A stretch of 64,000 bases of DNA from an uncultured Chloroflexia bacterium (GTDB lineage Bacteria; Chloroflexota; Limnocylindria; Limnocylindrales; CSP1-4). The number at the start of each line of letters is the position of its first letter. Position 1 is the stretch's first letter. Below, piece after piece: positions 24,304 through 48,139 of this stretch. A program made the position numbers and the translations under genes. Below the pieces are notes generated by a model. It saw nothing but the letters and a program-made list of their open reading frames with translations. It was not told the origin of the DNA and did no database searches. The DNA is taken from NCBI GenBank assembly GCA_963713075.1, contig CAVQKO010000006.1:644408-708407 (forward strand), written 5' to 3'.

Positions 24304-24375
24304 CTGCTGTCTCCGATGAACTCGCCGGCTTTCGTGCCGGCACGGTGTCTGGTGGCCGCCGGTGGCGACAGGGCG

Positions 24376-25565: not shown

Positions 25566-25577
25566 GTAATCGATTTC
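25566..25577. promoter_or_regulatory. Operator GTAATCGATTTC upstream of the LacI regulator gene (possible autoregulation)
   Basis: Matches the palindromic consensus with one mismatch. Confidence 0.45.
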
Positions 25578-25800
25578 GCAGCCTAGTGGACGCGGTGGCG
25601 CGGCGTCAAGGCGACAACATCACAATTGTCGACAACATCACAATCGCCTCGAGCGGTGTCGCGCGATGGCTGCAACCGCATGCGCCTTCGCCCCGCCCGC
25701 GCTCCTCGGAGCCCCAGACGGCTCGCCCATCTCGCGACCTGGCCGGCAGTCGGCGGTCTGACCCATCTCCCGACGTGGCCTGCCCTCGGGGGACCAGGCC

Positions 25801-26793
25801 TCAGCCGACCTTGACCACCCGGCCGGTCGCGACGCTCTCGTTCGCCGCCTCGGCGAGGACCAGGGCGGCCCGGCCGTCGGCGAACCCGACCGACGGGGCG
25901 CGGTCCGCCTTGACCGCCGAGACGAACTCGTCGAGCTCGGCCCTGAACGCCGGCATGTACCGCTCGAGGAAGAAGTTGAGGATCGGGCCCGCGGCCTCGG
26001 TCCGGGTCGCGCTGGCCGCCCGGACGGTCGTGGCGGTCCAGTTGCCGGCCTCGAGCGAGCCCAGGTCGCCGAACGCCTCGAGCCGCTGGTCGTAGCCGTA
26101 CGCGCAGGAGCGGCTGTTGACGATGGTGCACAGGGCGCCCGACGCCGCCCGCATCGTCAACATCGCCTGCGCGTGGTCACCGGCCTCCCTGAACGCGTCG
26201 AGGCCATTGTCCGACGCGACCGCGGACACCTCGACGATGTCGCCCAGCTGGAAGCGGGCCATGTCGAAGTCGTGGATGGTCATGTCCTTGAACATGCCGC
26301 CCGACACGCCCAGGTACGCGGCGGGCGGGGGCTGGGGGTCGCGCGACGTGATGCGCAGCGCCCGGACGATGCCGATCTCGCCCTGCTCGACACGCGCCTT
26401 GACCTCCCGGTACGACGGGTCGAACCGGCGGCAGAAGCCGAGCATCACGAACGGCGCCCTGGGCGCGATCTCGGCCCACGCGGCGTCGACCTCGGCCAGG
26501 TCGAGGTCGATCGGCTTCTCGAGCAGGATCTTCTTGCCCGAGTCGACCGCGCGGCGGAGCATGTCGATGTGGGTGTTGGTCGGCGTGCCGATCACGACCG
26601 CGTCGATCGAGGCGTCGCTGAAGGCGTCCTCAGGATCGAGACTCCACGTCGCGCCGTGCTTGGCGCCGAGCGCCGAGGCGGCCGACTCGATCGGATCGAC
26701 GACCAGGGCCAGCTCGGCCTCTGGGTTCTGGCTGATCGAGGTCGCGTGGACCTGGCCGACCCGGCCAGCCCCCAACATCGCGATGCGGAGCAT
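25801..26793 (-). CDS. iolG: Inositol 2-dehydrogenase (Gfo/Idh/MocA family)
   Basis: ATG at 26791-26793 with an AGGAGG RBS. The N-terminus is MLRIAMLGAGRVGQVH and an EKP motif is present. The product is 330 aa. Confidence 0.8.
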   Translation of the reverse strand: MLRIAMLGAGRVGQVHATSISQNPEAELALVVDPIESAASALGAKHGATWSLDPEDAFSDASIDAVVIGTPTNTHIDMLRRAVDSGKKILLEKPIDLDLAEVDAAWAEIAPRAPFVMLGFCRRFDPSYREVKARVEQGEIGIVRALRITSRDPQPPPAAYLGVSGGMFKDMTIHDFDMARFQLGDIVEVSAVASDNGLDAFREAGDHAQAMLTMRAASGALCTIVNSRSCAYGYDQRLEAFGDLGSLEAGNWTATTVRAASATRTEAAGPILNFFLERYMPAFRAELDEFVSAVKADRAPSVGFADGRAALVLAEAANESVATGRVVKVG

Positions 26794-26943
26794 GTGCGGT
26801 GCCTCCTGGTGAACCTCGTCGGGGCGCAGCGCAGACGTGCCGCTGCCGGGTCGGAGTTGACGAACTGGCCACGATCCGAGCCCCGCCGCCACCCGGCGGA
26901 ATCCGCGCGAGGGTTGCGCCCGAGGGTCCGATCGGTCTAGAGT

Positions 26944-26955
26944 GTAAACGATTAC
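26944..26955. promoter_or_regulatory. Operator GTAAACGATTAC in the divergent iolG/iolD promoter region
   Basis: A near-perfect palindrome centred between the two divergent genes. Confidence 0.55.
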
Positions 26956-27034
26956 CGACGCTAGTGCACCCCTGTTGTCCGGCGCTGACCCGCCTGGGCT
27001 CCAACCTCCGCGGTTCCTTGAGAGGAGGCTCCCG

Positions 27035-28915: not shown

Positions 28916-28942
28916 TCCGTGTCCCGCCGTCCCGAACCAGGA

Positions 28943-29821
28943 GGAGCTGGCGTGAGGATCGCGACCGCGGTCGTCAACTGGAACAACCCGGACATCCCGG
29001 ATGTGTTCCCGTGGATGCCCTACGGCGAGGCGCTCGACCACATGGTCGAGGCCGGCTACGACGCCACCGAGTGGGGCCCGTCGATGCCGACCGACCCCGA
29101 GGAGCTGCGCGAGGCATTGGGCTCACGCGGGCTCGACCTGGTGGGCGCGTTCGTCGGGCTCGGCTTCCGGGACCGCGATCGCTGGGAGGCCGAGCTCGAG
29201 CGGGCCCTCGGCATCGCGGACTTCCTCGCCGCGAACGGCGGCAGGGTGCTGATCGCGGCGGAGGCCGGCGACGACCGCCGCCGGGGCGAGGCGGGCCACG
29301 TGGACGAGTCCCGTGGCCTGACCGGCGCGCAGTGGCGCAACCTGGGCGAGGGCCTCGAGACGCTGGCCCGCAGGGTCGGCGGGCTGGGCATGACCCTCGC
29401 CTTCCACAACCACGTGGGGACATACGTCGAGACGCCCGGCGAGACCGCGCGCCTGCTCGAGGAGACCGACCCCGCGCTCGTCGGCTGGTGCCTCGACATC
29501 GGCCACCTCGCGTTCGGCGGCGGGCGCGCGGTCGACCTGCTGCCGCGCTACGCTGGGCGCGTCAGGCACGTGCACGTCAAGGACGTGGACGCCGCGGTTC
29601 TGGCCAAGGCGACGAGCGACCGGTGGTCATTCGGGCAGGCGCTCGCGCACTTCATCTTCCCGCCGCTGGGCGAGGGGATGGCCCAGATCCCGGCCGTTGT
29701 CGACGCCCTGCAGAGCGTCGGCTACGACGGCTGGTACGTCATCGAGCAGGACACCGCGCCTGACCCGACGTCCACCGCTACCGCCAACCGCATCTATCTG
29801 GAGGGACTGCTCGGGATCTGA
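28943..29821 (+). CDS. Sugar-phosphate isomerase/epimerase (xylose-isomerase-like TIM barrel), second paralog
   Basis: GTG start after a CAGGAGGAG RBS. It lies 4-28 nt downstream of iolD. The TIM-barrel H/D/E sites include HVHVKD. Confidence 0.7.
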   Translation, partial: GAGVRIATAVVNWNNPDIPDVFPWMPYGEALDHMVEAGYDATEWGPSMPTDPEELREALGSRGLDLVGAFVGLGFRDRDRWEAELERALGIADFLAANGGRVLIAAEAGDDRRRGEAGHVDESRGLTGAQWRNLGEGLETLARRVGGLGMTLAFHNHVGTYVETPGETARLLEETDPALVGWCLDIGHLAFGGGRAVDLLPRYAGRVRHVHVKDVDAAVLAKATSDRWSFGQALAHFIFPPLGEGMAQIPAVVDALQSVGYDGWYVIEQDTAPDPTSTATANRIYLEGLLGI

Positions 29822-29896
29822 TCGTTGTGGCGCACCGGTCTGCGAAACCGCTTGAACTTCCATGGTTGACAGGCGGCTTCGACACGACTAACGTCT

Positions 29897-34443: not shown

Positions 34444-35451
34444 TCAGTCCGGCGGCGGCGCGGTCGAACGCCGCACGACCAGCGTGCAGGCGGTGGTGAT
34501 GGCGCTCCTGTCCTGGTCGCCCCCGATCATGGCCAGCAGCCGCTCGACGGCCAGCCGGCCCATCTCCAGGCGGGGCTGGGCCATGGTCGTGAGCGGCGGC
34601 GTGACCAGCTGCGCGAGCTCGAGATCATCGAAGCCCGCGATGCTGAGCTGCTCGGGGACCCGGATGCCGCGGTCGAGGATGGCGCGCAGACCCCCGATCG
34701 CCGCGAGGTCGTTGTAGAAGAAGATCGCGGTCGGCCGATGGGGGAGCAGCAGCTGCACGCCCTCGGCGCCGGCGTCGGCCGCCTCGCGAGCCCGGGGCGC
34801 GGCCACGAGCGCCGCGTCGACCTCGATCCCGGCCTGGCTGAGCGCCCGCTCGTAGCCGGCCTGGCGCGCCCCGCTCGCCAGCGACGCGCGGCCGATCGCC
34901 ACGTAGCCGATGCGACGGTGGCCGAGGCCGATCAGGTGCTCGGTGATCGCCATCGCGCCGGCCGCATCGTCGACCGCCACGGAGCTCGCAAGCGGCCGGT
35001 CGGGCACCAGCTCGGACCGCTCGGCGACGAACACGACCGGGATCCTCGGGTCGAGGAGGGCGTGGTTCTCGGCGAGGTTGGACGCCACGATGATCATCCC
35101 GTCGACACGGCGCTGCTGGAACATCCGGGCGACGTCGAACTCGCGCACGTCCGAATCGCGGGTGCTCGCGACAAGCAGGTGGTAGCCGGCCCTGACGGCT
35201 GCGCCCTCGATGCCGCGCATGAGGAGCCCGTTGTACGGGTCGGCGTAGTCGCGGACGATCAGCCCGAGCGTCAGCGTGCGCCGCGTGGCCAGGCTCTGAG
35301 CCGCGGCATTGGGGGTGAAGCCGGCCTCCCGGGCGAGCTCCTGGACGCGCGCCCGGGTCGCCGCGCTGATCCGGGGGTCGTCGCGGAGCGCCTTCGACAC
35401 GGTCGACGGAGCGACACCGGCTCGTCGAGCCAGCTCGTAGATGGAGTCCAC
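34444..35451 (-). CDS. LacI-family transcriptional regulator (second copy), divergent from the corrinoid operon
   Basis: The HTH is at the N-terminus (IYELARRAGVAPSTVSKAL), followed by a sugar-binding domain. Confidence 0.85.
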   Translation of the reverse strand: MDSIYELARRAGVAPSTVSKALRDDPRISAATRARVQELAREAGFTPNAAAQSLATRRTLTLGLIVRDYADPYNGLLMRGIEGAAVRAGYHLLVASTRDSDVREFDVARMFQQRRVDGMIIVASNLAENHALLDPRIPVVFVAERSELVPDRPLASSVAVDDAAGAMAITEHLIGLGHRRIGYVAIGRASLASGARQAGYERALSQAGIEVDAALVAAPRAREAADAGAEGVQLLLPHRPTAIFFYNDLAAIGGLRAILDRGIRVPEQLSIAGFDDLELAQLVTPPLTTMAQPRLEMGRLAVERLLAMIGGDQDRSAITTACTLVVRRSTAPPPD

Positions 35452-35600
35452 GGTACCTCTGGCGGAATGGCCGCTCGACGCCTTGCCCCGGGCAGGTGGG
35501 CCAAACTATACTCCGCGAAACCGGTTGAAATGCGACCGGAGACCCCGTCGAGGACGGTGGCGCCAGGCCCCGACCTCGCACCGAATCGCAGCTGTGGCCG

Positions 35601-36851
35601 GTGACGCGGAAGGGCGCAAACGTGGCTGATCGGACAATCAGGGTCGCCGTCGTCGGGGCCGGCATGGCGGGCAGGGCCCACGCGGCCGGCTACCGGAGCC
35701 TCCGCTCGCTCTATGGCGACGCCGTGCCCGGGGTCGAGCTGGTCGCGGTCGTCGACGCCAACCGGACGCTCGCCGACGACCTCGCGGACAAGTTTGGATT
35801 CGGGCGGGTGGAGACCAGATGGGAGGCCGTCGCCGAGGCCGACGACATCGATGCGGTGAGCGTCGTCCTCCCCAACAGCGAGCACCGGGCGGCCGTGGCC
35901 GGCCTCGTGTCGCGCGGCAAGGCGATCCTGTGCGAGAAGCCGGCCGCGCGGACGGCCGCCGAGGCCATGGCGATGGAGGCGGCTGTCGCGAAGGCGGGCG
36001 TCATCGCCAGCGTGGCCTTCACCCACCGGTTCGCGCCGCCGGTTGCCGCGGTCAAGCACCTCATCGACGAGGGCCGGCTCGGCGCGCCGCGCCAGCTGAT
36101 GAGCCGGTACCTCTCCGACGGCGGACGCGACGCCGACGTCCCGTTCACGTGGCGCCACGACCTGGCGCTGGCGGGCGGCGGATCGCTGGTGGACCTCGGC
36201 GCCCACAACCTCGAGGCCGCCCGGTTCATGCTCGGCGACGTCGCGGCGATCCGCGGCGCCGTCCTCTCGATCCGGGTCCCGGAGCGCCACCTCGCCCTCG
36301 GCGCCACGAGGGGCCACGAGAAGGCCGCCCTCTCGGACGAGGCGCGCCGCGTGACCACCGACGACGAGGCGATGTTCCTCGCCGAGTTCGAGAACGGGTG
36401 CGTCGGCGTGTTCACGACCTCGCGGGTGGCCACCGGCTTCAAGAACGCGACGGGGTTCGTCCTCGTCGGCTCCGAGGCCTCGGCCTCGTTCGACTGGGAG
36501 CGCCTGTCCGAGTTCGGCTGGGCCGACGGGTCGGCCGACCACTACACTGAGGGCTGGACCCGAGTCCTTCTCGGCGGCCAGCACCCGTATCTCGCCGAGG
36601 GCCTCGTGATGCCGGTCGCCGGCGTCGGCTTCGGCCTCGGCGACGCCTTCATCTTCCAGGCGGCCGACTTCGTGACGGCCGTCGCCACCGATACGCCCAG
36701 TCGAATCGCGTCCTCGTTCGCTGATGGCGTCGCCAACGCGCTGGTCCTCGACGCGGTGAAGCGCTCCGCCGCGGCCGGGGGGACAGCTGTCCTGATCGCC
36801 GACGAGCGCGAGCGCGCTGCCGCCGACTTGGCGGCGGAAGGAGCTGCCTGA
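35601..36851 (+). CDS. Gfo/Idh/MocA-family oxidoreductase, first gene of the corrinoid operon
   Basis: A Rossmann N-terminus (IRVAVVGAGMAGRAHAAGY) and EKP motif (ILCEKPAA) are present. The product is 416 aa. Confidence 0.8.
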   Translation: MTRKGANVADRTIRVAVVGAGMAGRAHAAGYRSLRSLYGDAVPGVELVAVVDANRTLADDLADKFGFGRVETRWEAVAEADDIDAVSVVLPNSEHRAAVAGLVSRGKAILCEKPAARTAAEAMAMEAAVAKAGVIASVAFTHRFAPPVAAVKHLIDEGRLGAPRQLMSRYLSDGGRDADVPFTWRHDLALAGGGSLVDLGAHNLEAARFMLGDVAAIRGAVLSIRVPERHLALGATRGHEKAALSDEARRVTTDDEAMFLAEFENGCVGVFTTSRVATGFKNATGFVLVGSEASASFDWERLSEFGWADGSADHYTEGWTRVLLGGQHPYLAEGLVMPVAGVGFGLGDAFIFQAADFVTAVATDTPSRIASSFADGVANALVLDAVKRSAAAGGTAVLIADERERAAADLAAEGAA

Positions 36852-37480
36852 TGCCCGCCGACCTCGCCGCCCTCACCGCCGCCGTGGAGGCCGGCGACCG
36901 CACCGCCGCCGCCGCGCTCACGCAGCAGGCGCTCGACGGCGGCGTCCCGCCCAAGGCGGTCCTCGACGCGATGACCGCCGCCATGGACGCGGTGGGCCGG
37001 CGGTTCCAGGAGGGCGAGCTCTTCGTCCCCGAGATGCTCATCAGCGCGCGGGCCATGAAGGCGGGCACCGCGATCCTCGAGCCCGCCCTGGTGGCGGCCG
37101 GGGTGGTGCCCGAGTTCACCGCGGTCGTGGGCACCGTCGAGGGCGACCTCCACGACATCGGCAAGAACCTCGTGGGCATGATGTGGAAGGGCGCCGGGTT
37201 CGAGGTCGTTGACCTCGGGGTCAACGTCCCCGCCGCCCGGTTCGCCGAGGCGGCCCGGGAGCGGGGCGCCCACATCGTCGGCGTCTCGGCGCTGCTCACC
37301 ACCACGATGCCCGGCATGCGCGGCGTGGTCGAGGCCGTCCGCGCGGCCGGGCTCACCGCGAGGGTCGTCGTCGGCGGCGCCCCCACCACCCCCGAGTTCG
37401 CCGCCCAGATCGGCGCCGACGGCCACGCCCCCGACGCCGGGGCCGCGGTGGACCTCGCCCGGCGCCTCCTGGCGGGCTGA
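36851..37480 (+). CDS. Cobalamin-binding corrinoid protein (B12-binding cap plus Rossmann B12-binding domain; MtaC/MttC/MetH-like)
   Basis: Has the canonical DxHxxG...S.L...G B12 motif (DLHDIGKNLV…GVSALLTT…VVVGG) preceded by a helical cap domain. Its start overlaps the upstream stop (TGATG). Confidence 0.8.
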   Translation: MPADLAALTAAVEAGDRTAAAALTQQALDGGVPPKAVLDAMTAAMDAVGRRFQEGELFVPEMLISARAMKAGTAILEPALVAAGVVPEFTAVVGTVEGDLHDIGKNLVGMMWKGAGFEVVDLGVNVPAARFAEAARERGAHIVGVSALLTTTMPGMRGVVEAVRAAGLTARVVVGGAPTTPEFAAQIGADGHAPDAGAAVDLARRLLAG

Positions 37481-37493: not shown

Positions 37494-38831
37494 ATGTCCG
37501 GGGCCACGACGTCGACGGGCACCCCGATCGCGGGCTCGACCGCCGGCCTGCAGGATGTGGAGTGGGCGATCACGCCCGACGAGCGCACGTACCTCCGCGA
37601 GCTCGCCGGGCGCCAGGCCGAGTACGCCGCGCTGCCGGTGATGGCCGAGCGGCGCCGGCAGTGGCTCGACCTCAACGACGGCAGGCCGAACGTCCGTCCG
37701 CCGTTCATCCTCGAGGCCTCGAACTTCATGTTCGAGCTGCTGCCGGACCGGCGCTACCACTGCCGGTCCGCGGCGGCCCAGGCCATCGAGAAGGAGCTCG
37801 TCCGGTACACGCGGCCGCACGAGGTGTGGCAGGACGACCGGGTGGTGCCCGGTGTGCTCGACTTCAGCTGGTTCCTCGACATCGACGAGTTCGGCCCCGA
37901 CGTGCGGGTCGGCCTCGAGATGGCCGCCGACGCCGAGGGCAACGAGGTGGGCTACGGGTTCCAGCACCCGATCACGGACCTCGAGGCGGACCTGCCCAGG
38001 CTCCGGCCGGCACGGGTCGCGCTCCACCGGGAGCGCTCGCTCGCCTGGAGGGCCTTCGTGGAGGAGGTCCTGGGCGACGTCCTCCCCGTCCGCCTCGTCG
38101 TGGTCTGGAACGACGCAAACACGCTCGCCCAGCGCCTCGTGCACCTCATGGGCATGGAGGCCTTCTTCATCGCCTGCTACGAGCAGCCCGACGCGGTCCA
38201 CGCCGTCATGGCGTACCTGCGCGACAACGCACTCTCGATCATGCGCCAGGAGGACGAGCTCGGAATCCTCGGCCTCAACAACGACCACCAGGAGGTCTGG
38301 TGGTCGGGCCACAACTACACGAGCCTGCTCCCCGGGCCCGGCTTCGACCCGGGGCACGTGACGTGGAGGGACCGCTGGCAGGCGACCAACCTCCAGGAGG
38401 CGACCGGCATGCGGCCATCGATGGCGTCGGAGTTCCTCCACCCCTACGTCCACGAGATCGCCCAGCCCGTGGGCCTCCTCTACTACGGCTGCTGCGAGGC
38501 GGTCCACCAGAGCTGGGACGACATCCGCACGCTCCCGAACCTGCGGAAGGTCTCGATCAGCCAGTGGACCGACGAGGCGTTCATGGGCGAGGCCCTGCGC
38601 GGCACGGACCTCGTCTACTCGCGCAAGCCCAACCCGAACTACCTCTCGCTCGACGAGGTCCTCGACGGCGATGCATGGGCCGCCCACATCCGCACGACCC
38701 TCGAGGCGACGCGCGGCTGCTCGGTGGAGTTCCTCGTGCGCGACGTCTACACCCTGCACCGCAACCTCGACAATGCACGCCGTGCCGCGTCGATTGCCGA
38801 AGAGGTGATCGACCGCCACTGGGGCGCGTAG
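37494..38831 (+). CDS. Putative substrate:corrinoid methyltransferase (about 445 aa; URO-D/MtaA-like or MttB-like, family uncertain)
   Basis: ATG lies 14 nt after the corrinoid-protein stop. The protein is large, soluble and TIM-barrel-sized with a possible Zn site (H…YYGCCEAVH). It is operonic with a corrinoid protein, and no other partner type is evident. Confidence 0.5.
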   Translation: MSGATTSTGTPIAGSTAGLQDVEWAITPDERTYLRELAGRQAEYAALPVMAERRRQWLDLNDGRPNVRPPFILEASNFMFELLPDRRYHCRSAAAQAIEKELVRYTRPHEVWQDDRVVPGVLDFSWFLDIDEFGPDVRVGLEMAADAEGNEVGYGFQHPITDLEADLPRLRPARVALHRERSLAWRAFVEEVLGDVLPVRLVVVWNDANTLAQRLVHLMGMEAFFIACYEQPDAVHAVMAYLRDNALSIMRQEDELGILGLNNDHQEVWWSGHNYTSLLPGPGFDPGHVTWRDRWQATNLQEATGMRPSMASEFLHPYVHEIAQPVGLLYYGCCEAVHQSWDDIRTLPNLRKVSISQWTDEAFMGEALRGTDLVYSRKPNPNYLSLDEVLDGDAWAAHIRTTLEATRGCSVEFLVRDVYTLHRNLDNARRAASIAEEVIDRHWGA

Positions 38832-38850: not shown

Positions 38851-39768
38851 ATGCCCAGCGATCCGACCTACCCGAGCCTGCTCCTCGGCACCGCGCCCGA
38901 CAGCTGGGGCGTGTGGAACCCGTCGGGCGACCCGCTCCAGACGCCCTGGGAGCGCTACCTCGACGAGGTGCAGCGGGCCGGCTACCGGTACAGCGAGCTC
39001 GGGCCCTTCGGGTACGTCCCCGCGGACCCCGGCGTTGTGCGCGAGGAGTACGCCAAGCGGGGGCTCACCCTCACGGGCGGCACCGTCTTCGCGGCGCTCC
39101 ACAAGGGCAAGGACGCGCTCGCGAAGGCCAAGGCGGCGTGCGACGCCGAGATGGCCGTCATCGGGCCCAACGGCGCCCGGCACCTCGTCATCCTGCCCGA
39201 GGGTTACACCGACATGGACGGCAACGTCACCGGACCGACGACGCTCGCCGGCGACGAGTGGGCGAGCCTCACCGGCGGCATGAGCGAGCTCGGCCGGTAC
39301 CTGGCCGGCGAGCACGGCGCCGCGCTCGTGTTCCACAGCCACGCCGACAGCCACGTCGGCACCCAGGCCGAGATCGAGCGCTTCCTCGACGCCACCGACC
39401 CCGATGCCGTGGGGTTCTGCCTCGACACCGGGCACGTCGCCTACTGCGGCGCCGACAGCCTCAGGATCGTCGCCGACTACCCCGACCGCGTGCAGTACAT
39501 CCACCTCAAGCAGGTGGACACGGCGATCCTCGCCCGCGTCCGCGGAGAGGGGCTCGGCTTCGCCCCGGCGGTGCGCCTCGGCGCCATGGTCGAGCCGCCG
39601 CTCGGCGGGCCCGACATGCCGAGCCTGCTCGCCGCGCTGGCCGGCCTCGGCCGCGAGCTGTACTGCATCGTCGAGCAGGACATGTACCCGTGCGCGTTCG
39701 ACCGGCCGCTGCCGATCGCGCGTCGCACCTACGACTACTTCAGGACCCGCAGGATGCGGGTCGCTTAG
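38851..39768 (+). CDS. Sugar-phosphate isomerase/epimerase (xylose-isomerase-like TIM barrel), third paralog
   Basis: CAGGAG RBS. Has the metal-site residues (HSHADSHVG, LDTGHV) and is 305 aa. Confidence 0.75.
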   Translation: MPSDPTYPSLLLGTAPDSWGVWNPSGDPLQTPWERYLDEVQRAGYRYSELGPFGYVPADPGVVREEYAKRGLTLTGGTVFAALHKGKDALAKAKAACDAEMAVIGPNGARHLVILPEGYTDMDGNVTGPTTLAGDEWASLTGGMSELGRYLAGEHGAALVFHSHADSHVGTQAEIERFLDATDPDAVGFCLDTGHVAYCGADSLRIVADYPDRVQYIHLKQVDTAILARVRGEGLGFAPAVRLGAMVEPPLGGPDMPSLLAALAGLGRELYCIVEQDMYPCAFDRPLPIARRTYDYFRTRRMRVA

Positions 39769-39851
39769 GGTGGGGGAGCGTGCCCGCTCGCCAGGCCGCG
39801 ACGACGGCCCGCTTCGCGCGCTGAACGCCAAGCCCCGCGGCACCGCGACCG

Positions 39852-40820
39852 TCACGCGGCGTAGGCCACCGCCACCACCGGGATCAGCACCAGCGTCGCG
39901 ATCGTCGCCACCGACAGCGTGTCGGTCACGTAGGCGCGCTCGCCATCGTCCGCGCGCGGTCCCAGGTACAGCGGCAGGACGAACGGCGGCGGCAGCACGG
40001 CCATCGTCATCACGGCTGCGCCGAACAGCCGGTCGAGGCCCAGCAGCCCCTCCACCACCAGCCGGTCGAACGCGAGCGCGAGCACGATCCACAGCGCGAG
40101 CCGGACCGCGATCGTCGCGCCCGGCCGGGTCAGCCCACCCGGCCGCAGGGACGTCGTGTAGCCGATGACGACCGCGATGAGCGGCGTCGTGCACGCGCCG
40201 AGCAGCCCGAGCGCCGCGGGGACGGCGCCCAGGATGGGGGAGCCGGCGAGCACGTCGCCGAGGCCCACGAGCCGTCCGGCGACACCGCCCAGGATGGCCA
40301 GGATCACGGGTGTCGTGATGAAGGTGCGCGCCGTTGCGCCCAGACCCGGCCGGACGCCGGTCGACCGGCGGACGACCACGGTCGCGAGCACGAAGAACAC
40401 GAACAGGACCTGGCCGAGGTCGATGATCCCGAAGCGGTACAGCTGGTCCTGCCCGAAGATCCCGCCGTAGATCGCGTAGCCCAGCATGCCCGCCTCGAAG
40501 CCTGTCAGCAGCGGGGCGCCATAGGGCGACCGCTCGCCGACCGGCCGCAGCAGCATCCCCCCGACGGCGAGGACGGCCACGGAACTCAGGAAGACCGCGG
40601 CCACGACCGGCAGGTAGCGCGCTTGGAGGTCGACGTGGAGGAATGTGAGGAACAGTGCTGAGGGCAGCGTGATCGTCAGCACCAGACGCCGGAGGTCGGC
40701 CACCGTGGACGCCGAGAGCCATGCCCGCCGGCGGAGCAGCCAGCCGAGGGCGAACAGCAGCAGGATCGGCAGGACCCGGCCGAGTGCGTCGAGGATCAGG
40801 CCCATGGCGGCGGAGCGCAC
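39852..40820 (-). CDS. AEC-family (auxin-efflux-carrier/malate permease-like) membrane transporter
   Basis: Has about 10 TM helices, with N- and C-terminal halves resembling the AEC fold. Confidence 0.7.
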   Translation of the reverse strand: MRSAAMGLILDALGRVLPILLLFALGWLLRRRAWLSASTVADLRRLVLTITLPSALFLTFLHVDLQARYLPVVAAVFLSSVAVLAVGGMLLRPVGERSPYGAPLLTGFEAGMLGYAIYGGIFGQDQLYRFGIIDLGQVLFVFFVLATVVVRRSTGVRPGLGATARTFITTPVILAILGGVAGRLVGLGDVLAGSPILGAVPAALGLLGACTTPLIAVVIGYTTSLRPGGLTRPGATIAVRLALWIVLALAFDRLVVEGLLGLDRLFGAAVMTMAVLPPPFVLPLYLGPRADDGERAYVTDTLSVATIATLVLIPVVAVAYAA

Positions 40821-40856: not shown

Positions 40857-42563
40857 CTAGAAGAGGCCGACGACGTTGCCGTCGGCGTCGATGTCGATGC
40901 GCTCGCCGCCGGGGCGGGAGTTGAGGCCGGGCATCGTGCGCATGTCGCCCAGGATCGGGGTGATGAAGCCCGCGCCCGCGTAGAGGCGGACCTCGCGGAC
41001 GGGGATGCGGAAGCCGGACGGCGCTCCGAGCAGCTTCGCGTCGTGGCTCAGCGAGTACTGCGTCTTGGCCATGCAGACCGGGAGGCCCGCGTAGCCCATC
41101 GCCTCGAACTGGGCGAGCTGCTTGTTGGCGGCCGGGCTGTAGTCCACGCCGTCGGCGCCGTAGATCTTGGTCGCGATGGCCTCGATCTTGCCCTTGAGCG
41201 GCATGTCGTCGGGGTACAGGAGGTGGAAGTCGGGCGAGCCCTCCTCGGCGGCGGCCCAGACGGCCTGCGCCAGGTCCTCGGCGCCGGCCCCGCCGTCGGT
41301 GAAGTGGCGCGCCTCGACCGCGTCGCGAGCGCCGGCCGCGAGGGCGGCCTCGCGGATCGCGGCGATCTCCTCGGCCGTGTCGGTCGGGAAGATGTTGATC
41401 GCCACGACCACGGGCACGCCATAGGAGCGGACGTTCTCGATCTGCTTTCGGAGGTTCGCCGCGCCCCGCCGCACGCCCTCGGGGTTGTTCTCGAGCAGCG
41501 CCGGGTCGAGCGGCTTGCCGGCCACGATCCTGCCCACGCCGCCGTGCATCTTGAGCGCGCGGACCGTGGCCACGATCACGGCCGCGTCGCAGCGCAGGCC
41601 CGACGCGCGGCACTTGATGTCGAAGAACTTCTCGGCGCCCATGTCGGCCCCGAAGCCGGCCTCGGTCACCAGCACGTCCGAGCCGGCGAGCGCCGCGCGG
41701 TCCGCGATGATGCTGTTGTTGCCGTGGGCGATGTTGGCGAACGGGCCGCAGTGGACGAACGCGGGGCCGCCCTCGAGGGTCTGCATGAGGTTGGGCTTGA
41801 GCGCGTCCTTGAGCAGGACCGCCATCGAGCCCGCCACCCTGAGGTCCTCGGCGGTGATGGGCGTGCCGTCGCGCCTGGTGGCCAGGACGATCCGGCCGAG
41901 GCGGGCGCGCAGGTCCCGCAGGTCCTTGGCCAGGGCGAGGATCGCCATGACCTCGGACGCGACGGTGATCACGAACGACGTCTGGCGGGGGTAGCCGTTG
42001 TCCTTGCCGCCGAGGCCCACCACGATGTCGCGCAGGGCGCGGTCGCTGATGTCCACGACGCGCGGCCAGAGGATGTCGTTGGCGTCGATGCCGAGCTCGT
42101 TGCCGTGGTGGACGTGGTTGTCGATGAACGCGGCCGCGAGGTTGTGCGCCGCGCCGATCGCGTGCGTGTCGCCGGTCAGGTGGAGGTTGAAGTCCTCCAT
42201 CGGGATGACCTGGCTGTAGCCGCCGCCGGCCGCGCCGCCCTTGATCCCGAACACCGGGCCGAGCGACGGCTGGCGGAGCGCCACGGTGGCCTTCTTGCCG
42301 ATCCGGTTGAGACCCTGGGCGAGGCCGACCGTCGTGGTGCTCTTGCCCTCGCCCAGCGGGGTGGGGGAGATGGCCGTCACCAGCACGTACTTGCCCCGCG
42401 GGCGTTCGCGCTCAAGCCGCTCGATGCCCGCGACGGTGATCTTGGCCTTCGTGCTCCCGTAGAGCTCGACCTCGTCGTCGTGGTACCCCAGCTCGTGGGC
42501 CACCTCGACGATGGGCCGGGGCTTGACCGAGCGGGCGATCTCAAGGTCGGACGGGAACGACAT
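40857..42563 (-). CDS. fhs: Formate--tetrahydrofolate ligase
   Basis: Has the TPLGEGKSTTTVGL P-loop and is 568 aa. Its start abuts the folD stop. Confidence 0.9.
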   Translation of the reverse strand: MSFPSDLEIARSVKPRPIVEVAHELGYHDDEVELYGSTKAKITVAGIERLERERPRGKYVLVTAISPTPLGEGKSTTTVGLAQGLNRIGKKATVALRQPSLGPVFGIKGGAAGGGYSQVIPMEDFNLHLTGDTHAIGAAHNLAAAFIDNHVHHGNELGIDANDILWPRVVDISDRALRDIVVGLGGKDNGYPRQTSFVITVASEVMAILALAKDLRDLRARLGRIVLATRRDGTPITAEDLRVAGSMAVLLKDALKPNLMQTLEGGPAFVHCGPFANIAHGNNSIIADRAALAGSDVLVTEAGFGADMGAEKFFDIKCRASGLRCDAAVIVATVRALKMHGGVGRIVAGKPLDPALLENNPEGVRRGAANLRKQIENVRSYGVPVVVAINIFPTDTAEEIAAIREAALAAGARDAVEARHFTDGGAGAEDLAQAVWAAAEEGSPDFHLLYPDDMPLKGKIEAIATKIYGADGVDYSPAANKQLAQFEAMGYAGLPVCMAKTQYSLSHDAKLLGAPSGFRIPVREVRLYAGAGFITPILGDMRTMPGLNSRPGGERIDIDADGNVVGLF

Positions 42564-43487
42564 CTACTTGGCCTCCAGAACAGGGACTGCAAGGGAGTGG
42601 GCGCCCAGCGGGATCGTGCCTGTGGCCTTCGCCCGGGCCGCCTGGACCAGGTGCGTGAGCAGGATGGCGTTGGTGAGCGGTCCGACGCCGCCGGGGACTG
42701 GGGTGATCGCGAAGGCCACGCGCGCCGCGCTCTCGAAGTGGACGTCGCCGACGAGCTTGCCGTCGACGACGTTGATGCCGACGTCCACGACGACGGCGCC
42801 GGGCTTGAGCATGTCGCCGGTGATGAAGTTCGCCTTGCCGATGGCGACGATGACGATGTCCGCCGTGGCGAGGATGGCCGGCAGGTCCTGCGTCTTGCTG
42901 TGGCAGACGGTCACAGTGGCGTTCTCGCGCAGCATGAGCATCGCCGCCGGCTTGCCGATCACGTTGGAGCGCCCCACGACCACGCAGTGCTTGCCCGCGA
43001 TGGGGATCCCCGAGTGCTTGAGGATCTCGACGCTCGCGTGCGCGGTGGCCGGCAGGAACCCGTCGTAGCCGAGCGAGAGGAGCCCCGCGTTGAGCGGGTG
43101 GATGCCGTCGATGTCGCGCGTCGGGTCGAGCGTGTCGATCACCGCCCGCAGGCCGATCCCCTTGGGCAGGGGCTGCTGGACGATGATGCCGGCGACCGTG
43201 GGGTCGGCCTGGAGGTCCTCGAGGGCCCGGCTGACGTCGGCCTCCGTCGAGTCCGCGGGGAGCTCCACGAGCCGGTCGCCGATGCCCACTAGGCGGCAGC
43301 CGTCGAGGATCTTGTGCAGGTAGACGAGCGAGGGCGCGTCGGCGCCGACGACCAGCACCGCGAGCGTGGGCTGGAAGCCGAAGTCGCCCTTGAACGCGGC
43401 CACGTCCGCCGCCACCTGCTCGCGGATGGCGGTCGCCACCGGGCCTCCCCGCAGCAGCCGCGGGCCTTCGTCCATCAAGCCGGTCAT
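42564..43487 (-). CDS. folD: Bifunctional 5,10-methylene-THF dehydrogenase / 5,10-methenyl-THF cyclohydrolase
   Basis: Has the FolD fold with GRSNVIGKP and an IIVQQPLP-type motif. ATG at 43487 is preceded by a GAGGGA RBS. It is directly upstream of, and coupled to, fhs. Confidence 0.9.
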   Translation of the reverse strand: MTGLMDEGPRLLRGGPVATAIREQVAADVAAFKGDFGFQPTLAVLVVGADAPSLVYLHKILDGCRLVGIGDRLVELPADSTEADVSRALEDLQADPTVAGIIVQQPLPKGIGLRAVIDTLDPTRDIDGIHPLNAGLLSLGYDGFLPATAHASVEILKHSGIPIAGKHCVVVGRSNVIGKPAAMLMLRENATVTVCHSKTQDLPAILATADIVIVAIGKANFITGDMLKPGAVVVDVGINVVDGKLVGDVHFESAARVAFAITPVPGGVGPLTNAILLTHLVQAARAKATGTIPLGAHSLAVPVLEAK

Positions 43488-43617
43488 GCGTCCCTCGTCG
43501 GTTCCGCCCGGGGTCGGCCCGGCGCCGGGCGCCCAGTGTCGCACCGGACGGCCCGGTCGAGCCGAGCCATCCGGCAGGTTGTTGACAGTTTACCGTCCCC
43601 GCCAGCGGACACGCCGG

Positions 43618-44181
43618 CTATCGCGCCACGCGGTAGCGGAGGTAGACGACCTTCGAGTTGAAGGTGCGGGTCTCCACGAGTTCCAGATCCACTCCCCGCC
43701 CGCGCTGCGGGAAGTACGGGGTGCCGCCGCCAGCGAGCACCGGGTAGACCCTGAGCCGGTACTCGTCGACGAGGCCCAACGCGGCTGCCTCGGCGGCGAG
43801 CGTCGCGCCGCCGATCGCGATGTCGCCCTCGCCCGGCTCCGCTCGCAGGCGCTCGATCTCCTCCGCGAGGCCGCCGGAGGCCAGGCGGGCATTGCCCTGC
43901 ACCGCGGACAGCGTGGTGGAGAACACCACCTTCGGCAGCGCCTTCCAGATCGCGGCCCACTCGAGTTCTGCAGAGTCGAATGGTGGATCCTGGTCAGTCG
44001 TCTCCCAGTACAGCATCGTCTCGTACAGCCGTCGCCCCAGCAGGTGGGCGCTGACCCCTCGGATCTCGTCGGTCACGAAGCGGAAGACCTCCTCGTCGGG
44101 CGGCGGCGCAGTGATCTCGCCGTCCGGCCCGACGATGTAGCCGTCGAGCGAGACGCCCATCGAAAAGGTCACGCTGCGCAT
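43618..44181 (-). CDS. Dihydrofolate-reductase-like protein (RibD C-terminal domain family)
   Basis: The MRSVTFSMGVSLDGYI…GRRLYE…GGATL pattern matches the DHFR/RibD_C reductase fold. The product is 187 aa. Confidence 0.75.
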   Translation of the reverse strand: MRSVTFSMGVSLDGYIVGPDGEITAPPPDEEVFRFVTDEIRGVSAHLLGRRLYETMLYWETTDQDPPFDSAELEWAAIWKALPKVVFSTTLSAVQGNARLASGGLAEEIERLRAEPGEGDIAIGGATLAAEAAALGLVDEYRLRVYPVLAGGGTPYFPQRGRGVDLELVETRTFNSKVVYLRYRVAR

Positions 44182-44319
44182 CTGATGTCCTCCTTGGTAA
44201 CGGGCTCGACAATACTGCCGGGCCCGCAGGATTCATCCTGACCGCGTACCGGGCGGGCGAGCTCGGCGGCGACTGGGCCCCATCGATCCAGCGCGGTCGC
44301 CGGCCCGGGGGCGGTCCCG

Positions 44320-46626
44320 TCAGGCGGGCGGCGCGCCGCCTCGGCCGACGGGCGGCGGTGGAGCGGCGAGGGCTCCCGACGGCGTGGGCGGCACCGGCGG
44401 GATCGTCGTGGCGGGCGGGAGGAGCGGCATCAGCGGCTGCGGCGAAACGAGCCGGGGTGGTGGCGGCGGGCCGAGGGTCCCGGTCGCGCGGAGGGCGATG
44501 AGCCAGTCGGGGGGCGGCGGCGGCATGACCGGGCGACTCCCCGCGTGGACCATGACCCGGATCGGCGCGCTTGCCACGGGCGCGGCCGTGCCGTCCGGCC
44601 CCGCCCCGGGCCCCGACACGAGCGCGGCGAGACGCCGGCGCGGCCGCCGCCGGACCCGCGAGACGACCACGAGGCCCACGATGACCGCGAGGTTGAACAG
44701 CACGATCGACCCGAGCGCCAGGCGGTTCTCGCCCTCGACCTCGTAACGGGCGAGCTCGGCCCGCAGGTGGGCGGCCGCCGCCTCGGCTGCAGCCGGGTTT
44801 CCGGCGCCGACCGCCGCCTCGGCCTCGGCCAGGGTGGGCGACTTGGACCCGAGCGAGCCCAGCCATGCGACGAAGCCGAGCGGGCTCTGGAGCGGCGCGA
44901 TCGCCGCAGCCACGTCGCGCGCCGCGTCGAGCTGGGCCCGGGCCATCGCGAGGACCGCGTCGAGGTCGTCGGGTGTCGCCGCCGCCTGCCACTCCGCCCG
45001 GAGGGGCCCCGACGTGGTGTTCGATCCGGGGACAAGCCGCCCCGCCTGGACGACATCGTCGTACGCCTCCTTGGCCGTCGCGATGGCTGCCTGCGCCTGC
45101 GTGAACTGCCATGCGGAGAGCGGGTTGCGCACCGCCATCGGCACCGTCCACGGCGCGGTGTGGCCGATGAGGTCGTGGTACGCGGAGCGGGCCACAAGGC
45201 GCGCCTGCAGCGTGGCGGTGTCGCTCGTGACGCCGTACCTGAGCAGCAGGCTCCCTGCCAGCGCGTCGGGGCCGTGCTGCGGGTAGACCCCGAGCTCGTC
45301 GAACGCGTCGAGCCAGGCCTGCCACGTCGCGGCCCCGGTTCGGCTGGACTGGCTGGCCCCGTACGGGTCGCGATGGTCGAACAGGGCGGCGAGGGCGGCC
45401 CGGGTCCCGTCGGGCCCGGCCGCACGGGCAACGAGCGTCACCACGTTGCACGCGGTGTCGTACTCGTCCCACGCCGCTTGCTGCTGCGCCGGCGTGTATC
45501 CGGGGTCGAGGTACGTCCATGTGCGCAGGGTCTGCTTGCCGGCGCCTGGCGGCACGGTGAGGCAGGGCGGCTCATCGGGGACCACCGACCGGGCTGCCCA
45601 CTCCGCCGACCCCTCGTACAGCCAGACCGGCAGCTCCGTCTTGGCGTTGAACCAGGCGTGGGAGAGCTCGTGGGCGACGGTGGTGCCGCTGTCGGCGGGG
45701 GTGTCGGTCGTGAGGAACTCGCTGAGCGCGATCTCGTTGGCGGCGGCCCCGTACTGGCCCTCGTAGCCGGGCGGCACGAACGCCTCGCGCACCGTCAGGC
45801 CGAGGATGTTGGGCAGCGGCCGCCCGATGAGGGTGACGAGGGAGGGGATGGAGGTCTGGAGGGCGGCAGTGACGCGCGACTCCCATTCGGTGTCGCCCGG
45901 CCAGGAGCGCAGCGTCACCGCGCCGCCACCGGTGGAGATGACAGCGACCCGGTCCTGTCCGGGGTCGATGAGGTAGAGGCACGTGCTCCAGGTGTCCGGT
46001 GATGGCAGGACGCCACTGCGCAGGACGAGTTGGTCGCCGTCGGTCGACGGGCTGAACGGCTGAAGGCTGCTGAATGCCCGGTCGAGCCGGTAGCGGTCCG
46101 GGGCGACGACGTCGACCTCGCCGTCCGTCTGGCCGGACCCGTGGACGCAGAGGTGGATCGCGTCGGCGAGCACCCGGGTGGAGGCCTCGGAGCGGATGCC
46201 GCCATCGGGGAGCGTGTACGTCACCTTGACGCGGCGCAGCGCGGCGGCGCGGTATGCCGGCACGTCGACGCTGATCTGGTGGTACCCGAGGGGATCGAGG
46301 ACCGGGGTGTCCGGCGGCGCCCAGTCCAGCGTGGTCGACCCGAACGCCGCATGGACGTCGGTCGCGGTGTTCTCGACCCACAGGTCCACCTTCTCGGCGC
46401 GGACGCTGGCCTGCTTGGCCGACCCAGGGTCACTGAACACCTCGGCGGCCGCCTCGGGAACGAGGTCGACGAGGACGGCCACCTGGCGGTGCTCCGGGTC
46501 AACGGTATACGTGGTGATCGACCGGTAGCCTGCCGACACCGCTGCGGCCGGGACGGGCAAGCCGGGAGCGAGCGCGAGCGCGGCGAGCAGGAGCGCGCCT
46601 CCCACTCCAGCCAGCACCGACCGCAT
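44320..46626 (-). CDS. Membrane-anchored zinc metallopeptidase (gluzincin HEXXH…E) with a Pro-rich C-terminal tail
   Basis: A signal peptide (MRSVLAGVGGALLLAALALA) from ATG 46624-46626 is followed by HELSHAWFN…EGSAEW (HEXXH+18E). A C-terminal TM helix (IVLFNLAVIVGLVVV) precedes a PPPPP-rich tail. Confidence 0.65.
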   Translation of the reverse strand: MRSVLAGVGGALLLAALALAPGLPVPAAAVSAGYRSITTYTVDPEHRQVAVLVDLVPEAAAEVFSDPGSAKQASVRAEKVDLWVENTATDVHAAFGSTTLDWAPPDTPVLDPLGYHQISVDVPAYRAAALRRVKVTYTLPDGGIRSEASTRVLADAIHLCVHGSGQTDGEVDVVAPDRYRLDRAFSSLQPFSPSTDGDQLVLRSGVLPSPDTWSTCLYLIDPGQDRVAVISTGGGAVTLRSWPGDTEWESRVTAALQTSIPSLVTLIGRPLPNILGLTVREAFVPPGYEGQYGAAANEIALSEFLTTDTPADSGTTVAHELSHAWFNAKTELPVWLYEGSAEWAARSVVPDEPPCLTVPPGAGKQTLRTWTYLDPGYTPAQQQAAWDEYDTACNVVTLVARAAGPDGTRAALAALFDHRDPYGASQSSRTGAATWQAWLDAFDELGVYPQHGPDALAGSLLLRYGVTSDTATLQARLVARSAYHDLIGHTAPWTVPMAVRNPLSAWQFTQAQAAIATAKEAYDDVVQAGRLVPGSNTTSGPLRAEWQAAATPDDLDAVLAMARAQLDAARDVAAAIAPLQSPLGFVAWLGSLGSKSPTLAEAEAAVGAGNPAAAEAAAAHLRAELARYEVEGENRLALGSIVLFNLAVIVGLVVVSRVRRRPRRRLAALVSGPGAGPDGTAAPVASAPIRVMVHAGSRPVMPPPPPDWLIALRATGTLGPPPPPRLVSPQPLMPLLPPATTIPPVPPTPSGALAAPPPPVGRGGAPPA

Positions 46627-46741
46627 CGACACGCACGGACCCCCACTGCGACGCCCATCGGCGTCACCCGCCACCATAGCCGCCACCACGCGCGCCTGCC
46701 CATCCCCGATGATGCGGGGAACCGCACCCGGGAGTCCGCCG

Positions 46742-48139
46742 ATGCTCGACACTGACCAGACCACCAGCCCCGGCCTCGAAGCCGCGATCGCACGCGGCCG
46801 TGAGACGGCCGAGCGCGAGGAACGCGCCCGGGCAGCCGCCCGCGCGCGACGCTTCGACACGATCGCCGTCCACGGCCTCTACGACCACCTCGCGGCGGCC
46901 GCCAACCAGGGCGCGATCATCGAGCCCGCCTACCTCGCCCCCGCCCAGCACTTCGCCGACAGCGACGAGCTCGAGGCGGCGCTCGGCTACCTGATGCCCG
47001 CCTGGGGCTACACGCGGATCGCGAACCCCACGACCCACTACCTCGAGGAGACGCTCGCCCTGCTCGAGGCGTACGGCACGGGTCTCACCGCCTCCACGGC
47101 CACGACCGGGTCCGGCATGGCGGCGGTCCACCTGGCGACCAGCGCCCTGCTGGCCGCGGACCCCGCACGGCCGGGCTCGGTGCCCAACCTGGTGGCGTCC
47201 GCGAAGTGCTACGGCGGCACGTTCATGCTGTTCACGCGCTACGCGACCGAGCGGGGGATCGGCGTGCGCTGGATCGCGGACCCGCTCGACGCGGACGCGT
47301 GGGCAGCGTCGATCGACGAGGACACCCGGTTCCTCTACGCGGAGGTGCCATCGAACCCGGCGGTCGCGGTGGCCGACATCCCGGCGCTCGCCGCGCTGGC
47401 CCACGGGCACGGCATCCCGCTGCTCGTGGACTCGACCGTCGCCACGCCGGCCTGCCTCCGGCCGCTCGGCCTCGGTGCGGACGCCGTGATCCACTCGCTC
47501 TCCAAGGCGATCGGCGGGTCGGGGCTGGCGATCGCCGGGGCGGTGACGGCGCGCCACGACATCCCGGTGCGCGTGGGCCCGGACGAGCTGCGCGCGGACT
47601 TCGCGACGCACCTCAAGCTGCTCCCGGGACGGGACCTCGGGGCGGCGCTCTCGCCGTTGTCCGCGCTCGTGCTGCTGTCCGACCTGCGCACGCTGCGCAC
47701 CCGGATGGACCGCTGGAGCCGGTCAACCCACACGGTGTCAGAGTTCCTCGAGGCGCATCCGGCGGTGGCGCGCGTCTGGTACCCGGGCCTGGCGTCGCAC
47801 CCGGGGCACGTCGTCGCGGCACGCGACTTCTCGCTCGCGGACGGGGACGCCGATGGGCGGCCGGCCGCCCGGTACGGGTCGCTGCTCGCGTTCGGGCTCA
47901 AGGGCGGGTTGCCAGCGGCGCGCCGCATGTACGACCGGCTGGAGCTGGTCTTCCGCGCCACGGATCTCGGCCGGGTCAAGAGCGTCGCCACGATCCCGTC
48001 CATCTCCACGCACCAGCAGCAGGGGGACGCAGGGCGCGCGACGGCCGACATCGACCCGGGCCTGGTGCGGCTCTCGGTCGGCGGCGAGCACCCTGACGAC
48101 GTGATCGCGGACCTCGCCCAGGCGCTCGAGCCTCGCTAG
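46742..48139 (+). CDS. PLP-dependent Cys/Met-metabolism enzyme (O-acetylhomoserine sulfhydrylase / gamma-lyase family)
   Basis: Has the SLSKAIGG lysine motif and the characteristic length and fold. The upstream extension to 46709 overlaps the peptidase start. Confidence 0.8.
   Translation: MLDTDQTTSPGLEAAIARGRETAEREERARAAARARRFDTIAVHGLYDHLAAAANQGAIIEPAYLAPAQHFADSDELEAALGYLMPAWGYTRIANPTTHYLEETLALLEAYGTGLTASTATTGSGMAAVHLATSALLAADPARPGSVPNLVASAKCYGGTFMLFTRYATERGIGVRWIADPLDADAWAASIDEDTRFLYAEVPSNPAVAVADIPALAALAHGHGIPLLVDSTVATPACLRPLGLGADAVIHSLSKAIGGSGLAIAGAVTARHDIPVRVGPDELRADFATHLKLLPGRDLGAALSPLSALVLLSDLRTLRTRMDRWSRSTHTVSEFLEAHPAVARVWYPGLASHPGHVVAARDFSLADGDADGRPAARYGSLLAFGLKGGLPAARRMYDRLELVFRATDLGRVKSVATIPSISTHQQQGDAGRATADIDPGLVRLSVGGEHPDDVIADLAQALEPR

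Follow-up and report, generated by a model that had tools for sequence, protein, structure and literature searches.

Does the folD-fhs pair of an uncultured Chloroflexia bacterium oxidize methyl groups that a corrinoid system delivers to tetrahydrofolate (THF), or do the two sets of genes merely lie side by side? The question arose from a stretch of 64,000 nucleotides (nt) of contig CAVQKO010000006.1 (assembly GCA_963713075.1; Chloroflexota, Limnocylindrales, CSP1-4), hereafter the window, in which folD and fhs stand close to an operon encoding a corrinoid protein, and for which an earlier note, made from the letters alone, had proposed a methyl-to-THF function. On balance, we consider it probable that folD, fhs and a permease gene form the one such operon of this lineage, that this operon is tied to corrinoid methyl transfer to THF, and that the block encoding the corrinoid:THF methyltransferase (MT2) has been lost in the window. 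The gene identities, the coupling of folD and fhs, the place of the permease in their operon, the former adjacency to an MT2 gene and the loss of that gene are shown directly. The corrinoid link of the operon was credible at the level of the lineage. For the window itself, the best description is that of a supercluster for corrinoid:THF methyl transfer and one-carbon (C1) oxidation in degraded form, because deletion has left no more than a relic of its MT2 gene.

Because of the high G+C content of the window (~72%), genes were mapped by codon-position G+C and then annotated with Pfam and NCBIfam. The minus-strand frames at folD-fhs were backed by third-codon-position G+C (GC3) values of 0.94 to 0.99; the long plus-strand open reading frames (ORFs) opposite them failed the codon-position test. 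The features on which the argument turns are as follows.

39769-39851, no strand: gap of 83 nt between convergent operon ends, from the coordinates of the flanking genes
39852-40820, minus strand: polytopic membrane protein, distantly AEC/Mem_trans-like (GC3 0.94, hydrophobic segments, follows fhs)
40857-42563, minus strand: fhs, formate-tetrahydrofolate ligase, 568 amino acids (aa) (PF01268, NF010030, P-loop)
42561-42576, minus strand: folD/fhs junction, read from the sequence (GGAGG at 42576-42572, TAG at 42566-42564, ATG at 42563-42561)
42564-43487, minus strand: folD, bifunctional-type methylene-THF dehydrogenase/cyclohydrolase, 307 aa (PF00763, PF02882, solved FolDs)
43577-43594, minus strand: invariant 18-nt block GGTAAACTGTCAACAACC upstream of folD, followed by a stem-loop (cross-locus identity)
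43618-44181, minus strand: RibD_C / YyaP-like 'DHFR-family' protein, 187 aa (PF01872, 2gd9)
44237-44275, plus strand: relic, the 3' end of a pterin-binding (corrinoid:THF type) methyltransferase gene (blastn, translation, synteny)

Fhs matched PF01268 with 854.6 bits over model positions 2-556 of 556 and belonged to the NCBIfam equivalog NF010030 (825 bits; cut-off, 652), and its P-loop GEGKST (residues 71-76) matches the nucleotide-binding pattern GEGK[ST]T. The protein was 100% identical to database protein P0121, from a 773,375-nt contig, and its close relatives (85-94% identity) were labelled Candidatus Limnocylindrales or came from metagenome-assembled genomes (MAGs) of Chloroflexota. FolD scored above gathering score with both PF00763 (89.1 bits) and PF02882 (211.4 bits) and aligned over its full length to solved FolDs, the best being 8wfc (E 2e-68). 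Matches to the NCBIfam FolD models, which are lineage-specific equivalogs, were also full length and fell below cut-off for all 25 listed models (best, 290 bits versus 421). RibD_C was placed in PF01872 with 68.8 bits against a gathering score of 24.1. The identities and coordinates originally given to these three proteins were therefore confirmed by the Pfam, NCBIfam and solved-structure matches. The folD start is likely to be ATG 43487, as called in the loci L170 and L167 of relatives, with GTG 43544 as an alternative.

Direct reading of the TAG and ATG also bore out the claim that the folD stop abuts the fhs start (42561-42566), and the GGAGG is located 8 nt upstream of the fhs ATG. This abutment is likely to provide translational coupling. 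An abutting or overlapping junction was kept in all close relatives (L167-L172; TAGATG, TGAATG or overlapping TGATG), and in the next clade (L084 and L085) the two genes share 4-nt overlaps; because the tight form is conserved in relatives, the junction is not due to chance. A second trait of FolD concerns the Y-x-x-x-K site, whose lysine is required for cyclohydrolase activity in the human and E. coli enzymes. Residues ~55-59 read YLHKI at this site, with Lys one position early and Ile in the canonical slot. The same YLHKI was found in all close orthologues, and the next clade has no Lys there. Together with a separate fchA-like gene just upstream of folD in some relatives (type A, below), this hints at a cyclohydrolase activity that may be weak or absent.

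The neighbourhoods of the operon were compared in nine folD-fhs contexts with long flanks, namely the window, L005, L065 and L167-L172. Three layouts with corrinoid genes were detected. In the first, exemplified by L065, genes for a TIM barrel, FolD, Fhs and the permease have upstream of them, in divergent orientation, genes for a second corrinoid protein (Corr2), a Pterin_bind methyltransferase, TMEM175 and a Cys/Met pyridoxal phosphate (PLP) enzyme. L005 is laid out as L065, but the second corrinoid gene was not detected there; L168 is too, but lacks the operon with GFO dehydrogenase, corrinoid and 445-aa genes described below; and L170 has the Pterin_bind methyltransferase beside the operon, with a GntR gene inserted and no called corrinoid gene. 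In the second layout, corrinoid and 445-aa MtaA-fold genes are convergent on the permease end (window, L005 and L065). The third is that of L169, where folD-fhs is flanked upstream by an MtaA-like URO-D gene and downstream by a gene for a corrinoid protein. The comparison proposed earlier thus came out in favour of a link, as corrinoid proteins with pterin-binding or MtaA-like methyltransferases adjoin folD-fhs in relatives. An earlier paper already mentions genes for corrinoid methyltransferases in MAGs of Ca. Limnocylindria (PMC11264602).

The remaining contexts (type A; L167, L171 and L172) contain an fchA-like gene, folD and fhs, followed in L167 and L172 by the permease gene, with DnaB, LexA and L9 genes on one side and histidine ammonia-lyase and urocanase genes on the other; L171 also has genes for glutamate formiminotransferase (FTCD) and an amidohydrolase. 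These flanks suggest that formimino-THF from histidine is drained to formate in type A relatives and, more generally, that FolD and Fhs run in the oxidative or disposal direction. Comparison of the Fhs proteins from corrinoid and non-corrinoid contexts detected identities of 85-93%, with the two kinds intermixed (the type A protein of L167 is 92% identical to that of the window), and the complete 4.15-Mb L065 chromosome had one Fhs among those listed. Because of this intermixing and the one L065 Fhs, we regard the operon as a single orthologous unit with changing neighbours and not as a specialised paralogue; folD-fhs-permease looks like the sole general C1 operon of this Limnocylindrales-like Chloroflexota lineage, and it recurs next to pathways that charge THF with C1 units. 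A dedicated methyl-THF oxidation module was not supported, since no pathway-specific second copy was seen and no metF is nearby; the loci of the relatives also had no metF.

What has become of MT2 in the window was apparent from alignment with these relatives. Homology to L065, L005 and L168 runs from folD up to ~43596 and then resumes at 44237-44275, and the ~640 nt between the two blocks are essentially the RibD_C gene. The resumed segment matches the terminal 39 nt of the Pterin_bind gene in L170 with 87% identity (blastn, E 9e-7). Its translation, TAYRAGELGGD, compares with TAHRAGELGGD in L170 and TAFRAGELGGD in L168, both followed by a stop codon that has been changed to TGG in the window. 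Strand and order are as synteny predicts, and the relic sits just past the RibD_C start codon. RibD_C has displaced a block that extends over ~2.9 kb in L065 and encodes the TIM barrel and the second corrinoid protein together with most of the pterin methyltransferase. The ancestral state of this sub-lineage had genes for a second corrinoid protein and for a pterin-binding MT2 directly upstream of the operon; in the window the MT2 block is deleted, RibD_C stands in its place as a lineage-specific replacement and a 39-nt relic is left. The search for a pterin-binding methyltransferase (PF00809) found none in the window beyond the relic, whereas one is present beside folD in L005, L065, L168 and L170.

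Upstream of folD, the block GGTAAACTGTCAACAACC was identical in the window, L005, L065 and L168, inside an otherwise variable spacer; it occurs once in the window, with 0 occurrences expected by chance. It is followed by a stem-loop at ~43535-43575, with 2 covarying pairs among the 4 sequences, and conserved GTGCGACACTGG comes after the hairpin. The region had no Rfam match, and no ZTP, THF or cobalamin riboswitch was detected either in the whole window (gathering thresholds) or in the folD upstream region (E up to 1). The block and stem-loop may represent a promoter, an operator or a leader.

Downstream of fhs, the permease (~320 aa; alternative ATG start at 40805) has many hydrophobic segments and is compatible with an AEC carrier. 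Its score with PF03547 (17.1 bits, E 0.0022) fell below the gathering score of 25.7; all 8 orthologues matched PF03547 alone, likewise below threshold (best E 2e-5), and the AEC label is thus a weak though consistent assignment. The gene is co-oriented with fhs and begins 36-51 nt after it, and thus belongs to the folD-fhs operon. It follows fhs in L005, L065, L167, L168, L169, L170 and L172, and it accompanies folD-fhs even when corrinoid genes are not nearby (L167 and L172). The permease had been described as separating the folD-fhs module from the corrinoid operon, but the gene is the last of the folD-fhs operon and not a mere separator. The folD-fhs and corrinoid operons lie on opposite strands, tail to tail. 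The 83-nt gap between them is G+C rich, with a predicted fold of -37.6 kcal/mol. No T-tract terminator was found in the gap, and scans for sigma-70 and terminator consensus sequences between the operons were uninformative.

The corrinoid operon is a LacI-controlled sugar/inositol operon of four genes, whose products are a dehydrogenase, the corrinoid protein, an unannotated protein of MtaA/UroD fold and a TIM barrel resembling IolE. Its genes and regulator are as follows.

34444-35451, minus strand: LacI-family regulator, divergent from the corrinoid operon (Pfam LacI, Peripla_BP_3)
35601-36851, plus strand: GFO/IDH/MocA dehydrogenase, first gene of the operon (Pfam)
36851-37480, plus strand: corrinoid protein, MtgC/MtbC-like, 209 aa (PF02310, PF02607)
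37494-38831, plus strand: 445-aa protein, MtaA/UroD-like fold (AlphaFold2 model, Foldseek)
38851-39768, plus strand: IolE-like xylose-isomerase-fold TIM barrel, last gene of the operon (PF01261)

The corrinoid protein has B12-binding and cap domains and the motif DLHDIG (DxHxxG, residues 99-104), which place it in its family; NCBIfam corrinoid-protein models scored 156-176 bits, below their cut-offs. Below cut-off also were the best NCBIfam match of the dehydrogenase (levoglucosan dehydrogenase, 240 bits) and that of the TIM barrel to TIGR04379 iolE (136 bits). The palindrome-like GAAACCGGTTGAA at 35517-35529 (plus strand), between the LacI gene and the operon, has a copy with 1 mismatch at 29844-29856 (plus strand), upstream of a sugar ABC operon (pattern GAAACCG[G/C]TTGAA), and is a putative operator of the LacI family. 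The operon is part of an inositol-type catabolic supercluster that occupies 17-40 kb of the window. A near-complete myo-inositol set is encoded at 17217-29821, in which a transaldolase/aldolase-family gene also lies; IolB, IolD, IolG and a CoA-acylating methylmalonate-semialdehyde dehydrogenase (the IolA step) exceed NCBIfam cut-offs. The supercluster further contains IolE-like TIM barrels, additional GFO-family dehydrogenases, two LacI regulators and a sugar ABC transporter.

The 445-aa protein had no sequence match in Pfam, NCBIfam or the PDB. Its homologues, all of them unnamed or called 'hypothetical protein', number more than 1200 and occur in Chloroflexota, Planctomycetota, Verrucomicrobiota, Lentisphaerota and Armatimonadota, among others, and the family shares an invariant C90 and a C333-C334-E335 run. 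Its AlphaFold2 model (mean pLDDT 84.8) was compared with solved structures by Foldseek, and the top match was 4ay7, the methylcobalamin:coenzyme M methyltransferase MtaA of Methanosarcina mazei, followed by UroD and MetE (TM-scores of ~0.5-0.6). The protein therefore resembles the UroD-fold methyltransferases MtaA, MtbA and CmuA (PF01208, TIGR01463) in its best structural match and in being encoded next to a DxHxxG corrinoid protein. It differs from them in having no sequence match to PF01208 or TIGR01463, in being ~100 aa longer, in its Cys-Cys-Glu run, where the zinc site of MtaA is His-x-Cys...Cys, and in that most members of the family stand alone, with no corrinoid neighbour. The fold fits a corrinoid-dependent substrate methyltransferase (MT1), for which the protein is a candidate outside any matched sequence family. 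A general tie of the family to corrinoid proteins was considered and rejected, as ~73 distant homologues have no corrinoid neighbour.

If the corrinoid and folD-fhs operons serve one pathway, a substrate-specific methyltransferase would methylate the Co(I) corrinoid protein, MT2 would move the methyl group from it to THF, MetF (not in the window) would make methylene-THF, FolD would make 10-formyl-THF, and Fhs would release formate with a gain of ATP; the permease may export the formate. The link of folD-fhs to corrinoid methyl transfer is plausible, and we infer an oxidative role as a methyl drain because of the repeated neighbourhoods in three layouts, the association with hut genes and two precedents described below. 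In the window this chain would be locally broken at MT2, and the corrinoid and MtaA-fold proteins could feed THF only given another MT2 elsewhere in the genome. With the local MT2 gone, methyl delivery to THF is therefore not assured in this organism. The proposal that the neighbourhood supports a methyl-to-THF function thus held for the general link, through the relatives and the relic, and did not hold for a dedicated module, a local MT2 or co-regulation.

Several observations weigh against the link. The two operons converge and are therefore not co-transcribed, and no GAAACCGGTTGAA-like putative operator was found upstream of folD or RibD_C; on both counts the suggested co-regulation was not upheld. 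Genes for MetF, a pterin methyltransferase and a reductive activase are all missing from the window: Pfam searches of ORFs with gene-like codon-position G+C, together with tblastn, detected no metF, as the earlier note had stated; tblastn (E up to 0.1) of unannotated DNA for metF, fchA, MtaA-like and pterin methyltransferase genes brought up the relic alone; and no annotated ORF had a Pfam match to an activase of the RamA/RACo type. No close MT2 orthologue is recorded from the 773-kb contig of the window. Loci differ in the corrinoid gene that separates the genes for the GFO dehydrogenase and the 445-aa protein: it was intact in 6 and absent in 3; L003 and L082/L083 keep the 445-aa gene without it, and in L004/L081 it is reduced to a B12-binding_2 cap remnant. 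L001, the closest locus by 445-aa protein (87%), has no fhs or folD next to that operon, nor do L004 and L082, and the ~73 distant homologues, which come from many phyla, are encoded next to no corrinoid, GFO, TIM or fhs gene; three of them inspected with Pfam labels were stand-alone genes. The folD-fhs operon occurs in a non-corrinoid neighbourhood in the three type A relatives. The direction of flux through Fhs and FolD is not readable from sequence.

The first alternative is that of a pure housekeeping unit, a general C1 operon for purines, formyl-Met-tRNA and formate handling, with the corrinoid adjacency an accident of rearrangement. We regard this as rather unlikely. The operon is orthologous and apparently single copy, it lies next to DnaB, LexA and L9 genes in the three type A relatives, and the window has lost the adjacent MT2 yet kept folD-fhs. 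The convergent orientation without a shared operator and the lack of the adjacency in L001, L004 and L082 fit this explanation too, as does the finding that, of 80 fhs loci from unrelated metagenomic sequences, 22 have folD immediately adjoining fhs. In 6 of 9 genomes, however, and in three layouts, a corrinoid protein and a methyltransferase of pterin-binding or MtaA-like type are encoded within ~5 kb of the operon, although all context loci come from one lineage and the counts are not independent. As corrinoid proteins are usually few per genome, such adjacency is unlikely by chance. Furthermore, operons of corrinoid, Pterin_bind and fhs genes occur in independent lineages: among the unrelated metagenomic loci, L094 has metF followed by Corr-Pterin_bind-fhs and is the clearest of few such clusters, and in L097 and L101 a Pterin_bind gene adjoins fhs. 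Even the 'housekeeping' context adjoins a catabolic pathway that yields C1 units (hut/FTCD).

The second alternative reverses the flow: the permease would import formate, Fhs would activate it and FolD would reduce it toward methyl-THF, and the MT2 and corrinoid proteins of the relatives would act as a split MetH-like donor, for example in methionine synthesis with the Cys/Met PLP enzyme. Fhs and FolD are both reversible. The Cys_Met_Meta_PP gene is directly downstream of, and co-oriented with, the pterin methyltransferase gene in L168, L170 and L005, follows it in L065 with TMEM175 in between, and is retained in the window at 46709-48139. The source annotations name the pterin protein 'methionine synthase', and thiol methyltransferases share the MtaA/MetE-like fold seen in the 445-aa protein. 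Against this, neither the window nor the annotated loci of relatives showed a homocysteine-binding domain, and the PLP enzyme was not assignable, as sulfhydrylase and gamma-lyase models scored alike and all below cut-off. Moreover, the other context of the operon pairs it with histidine catabolism, which releases C1 units, and the corrinoid operon sits in a LacI-regulated catabolic sugar/inositol cluster. An assimilatory role is accordingly judged improbable.

The last alternative, that RibD_C, FolD and Fhs form a three-gene folate module in which a DHFR-like protein regenerates or reduces folate, is scarcely tenable: RibD_C is co-oriented with folD, 130 nt upstream, and belongs to the DHFR-like fold superfamily, but it is absent from this position in 8 of 8 relatives, homology breaks on both of its sides with the methyltransferase relic just past its start codon, and between it and folD there are a conserved upstream element and enough space for a promoter. 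Among solved structures it comes closest to B. subtilis YyaP (2gd9, E 2e-23), the T. maritima DHFR matching with only E 1e-4; YyaP-type proteins are not known to have an assigned function, and no conserved genomic link of RibD_C to folate genes was found. As RibD_C occupies a deletion scar, it is not part of the folD-fhs module in which it had earlier been included.

The reading that we prefer, a general C1 operon tied to corrinoid methyl transfer, has three points of comparison among known systems. The formimino-THF route of histidine and purine degradation employs FTCD, a cyclodeaminase (FchA), FolD and Fhs. The fchA-folD-fhs genes beside hut in L167, L171 and L172 resemble it, in that THF-bound C1 units are disposed of as formate with a gain of ATP; that route differs in having no corrinoid step, and the window lacks fchA and hut genes. 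In the cmu (chloromethane utilisation) cluster of Methylobacterium extorquens CM4, folD, purU and metF2 accompany cmuA and cmuB (PMC3621897). As proposed here, corrinoid methyl transfer to THF (by CmuA and CmuB) is there encoded with its own THF oxidation genes, including folD, and the C1 unit leaves as formate. The cmu system differs in using PurU, a hydrolase without ATP gain, instead of Fhs; in being plasmid-borne, with a dedicated second metF; and in that its folD was found in strain CM4 alone. In the present lineage, by comparison, folD-fhs is apparently the sole copy and has no metF close by, and the window has lost its MT2. In the quaternary-amine system of Eubacterium limosum, mtqA and ramQ lie within a methyl-THF oxidation cluster, and the substrate methyltransferases and MtqC are encoded elsewhere (PMC8604678). 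This division, with a shared corrinoid:THF methyltransferase in the oxidation cluster and substrate methyltransferases in separate clusters, resembles the split in L065 and L005, where the pterin methyltransferase gene is beside folD-fhs and the corrinoid and MtaA-fold genes are in the sugar operon. E. limosum, however, is an acetogen that has the complete Wood-Ljungdahl pathway and whose activase depends on ATP, whereas no activase, metF or CODH/ACS (CO dehydrogenase together with acetyl-CoA synthase) gene was seen here, and the candidate substrate methyltransferase does not belong to the MttB family.

The folD-fhs pair itself is textbook, the feature is largely ordinary and its corrinoid link is of a known kind. 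What the comparison adds is evidence that the only THF C1 operon of a lineage of abundant, uncultured soil and freshwater Chloroflexota repeatedly lies beside parts of corrinoid methyltransferase systems. The reduction of MT2 to a relic is also a clear case of gene loss. A genome-scale model that deduced methyl transfer to THF just from neighbouring genes would err in this organism if no second MT2 is present. Beyond the coordinates of folD-fhs is the more novel lead, the 445-aa MtaA-fold family paired with a corrinoid protein in an inositol-type operon. An unannotated MtaA-like-fold family of more than 1200 members is thereby brought to attention, with a possible corrinoid route for methylated cyclitols. 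We offer, as a conjecture that is less likely to be right than wrong by a wide measure, that soil Limnocylindrales might demethylate methylated cyclitols or sugars (pinitol-type O-methyl-inositols) by corrinoid chemistry: the 445-aa family would act as MT1 in a LacI-controlled iol-type operon, a pterin MT2 would pass the methyl group to THF, FolD and Fhs would convert it to formate and ATP, and a new AEC-like carrier would export the formate, the window being a natural partial knockout that lacks MT2. A literature search found no bacterial demethylase for methylated cyclitols, and searches on pinitol with corrinoid and on O-demethylase with fhs gene clusters returned nothing relevant.

Three further regions of the window were recorded. 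At 10684-14085, ~3.4 kb have no convincing ORF, with several short or overlapping frames and high G+C at the second codon position; two frames that were tested had no Pfam matches, and the region may be non-coding DNA or else a gene that is frameshifted or of low complexity. A plus-strand ORF of 718 aa without a Pfam match, at 2061-4217, has gene-like codon bias. Between the relic and the Cys/Met PLP gene, the minus strand encodes, from 44320 to ~46626, a secreted or membrane-anchored HExxH protein of ~770 aa. This protein has no Pfam match and carries a signal peptide, an HELSH motif, a C-terminal transmembrane segment and a Pro-rich tail. Dismissal of the corresponding 846-aa ORF (44320-46860) as a shadow of plus-strand genes was itself rejected on account of the signal peptide, the HExxH motif and the C-terminal membrane anchor.

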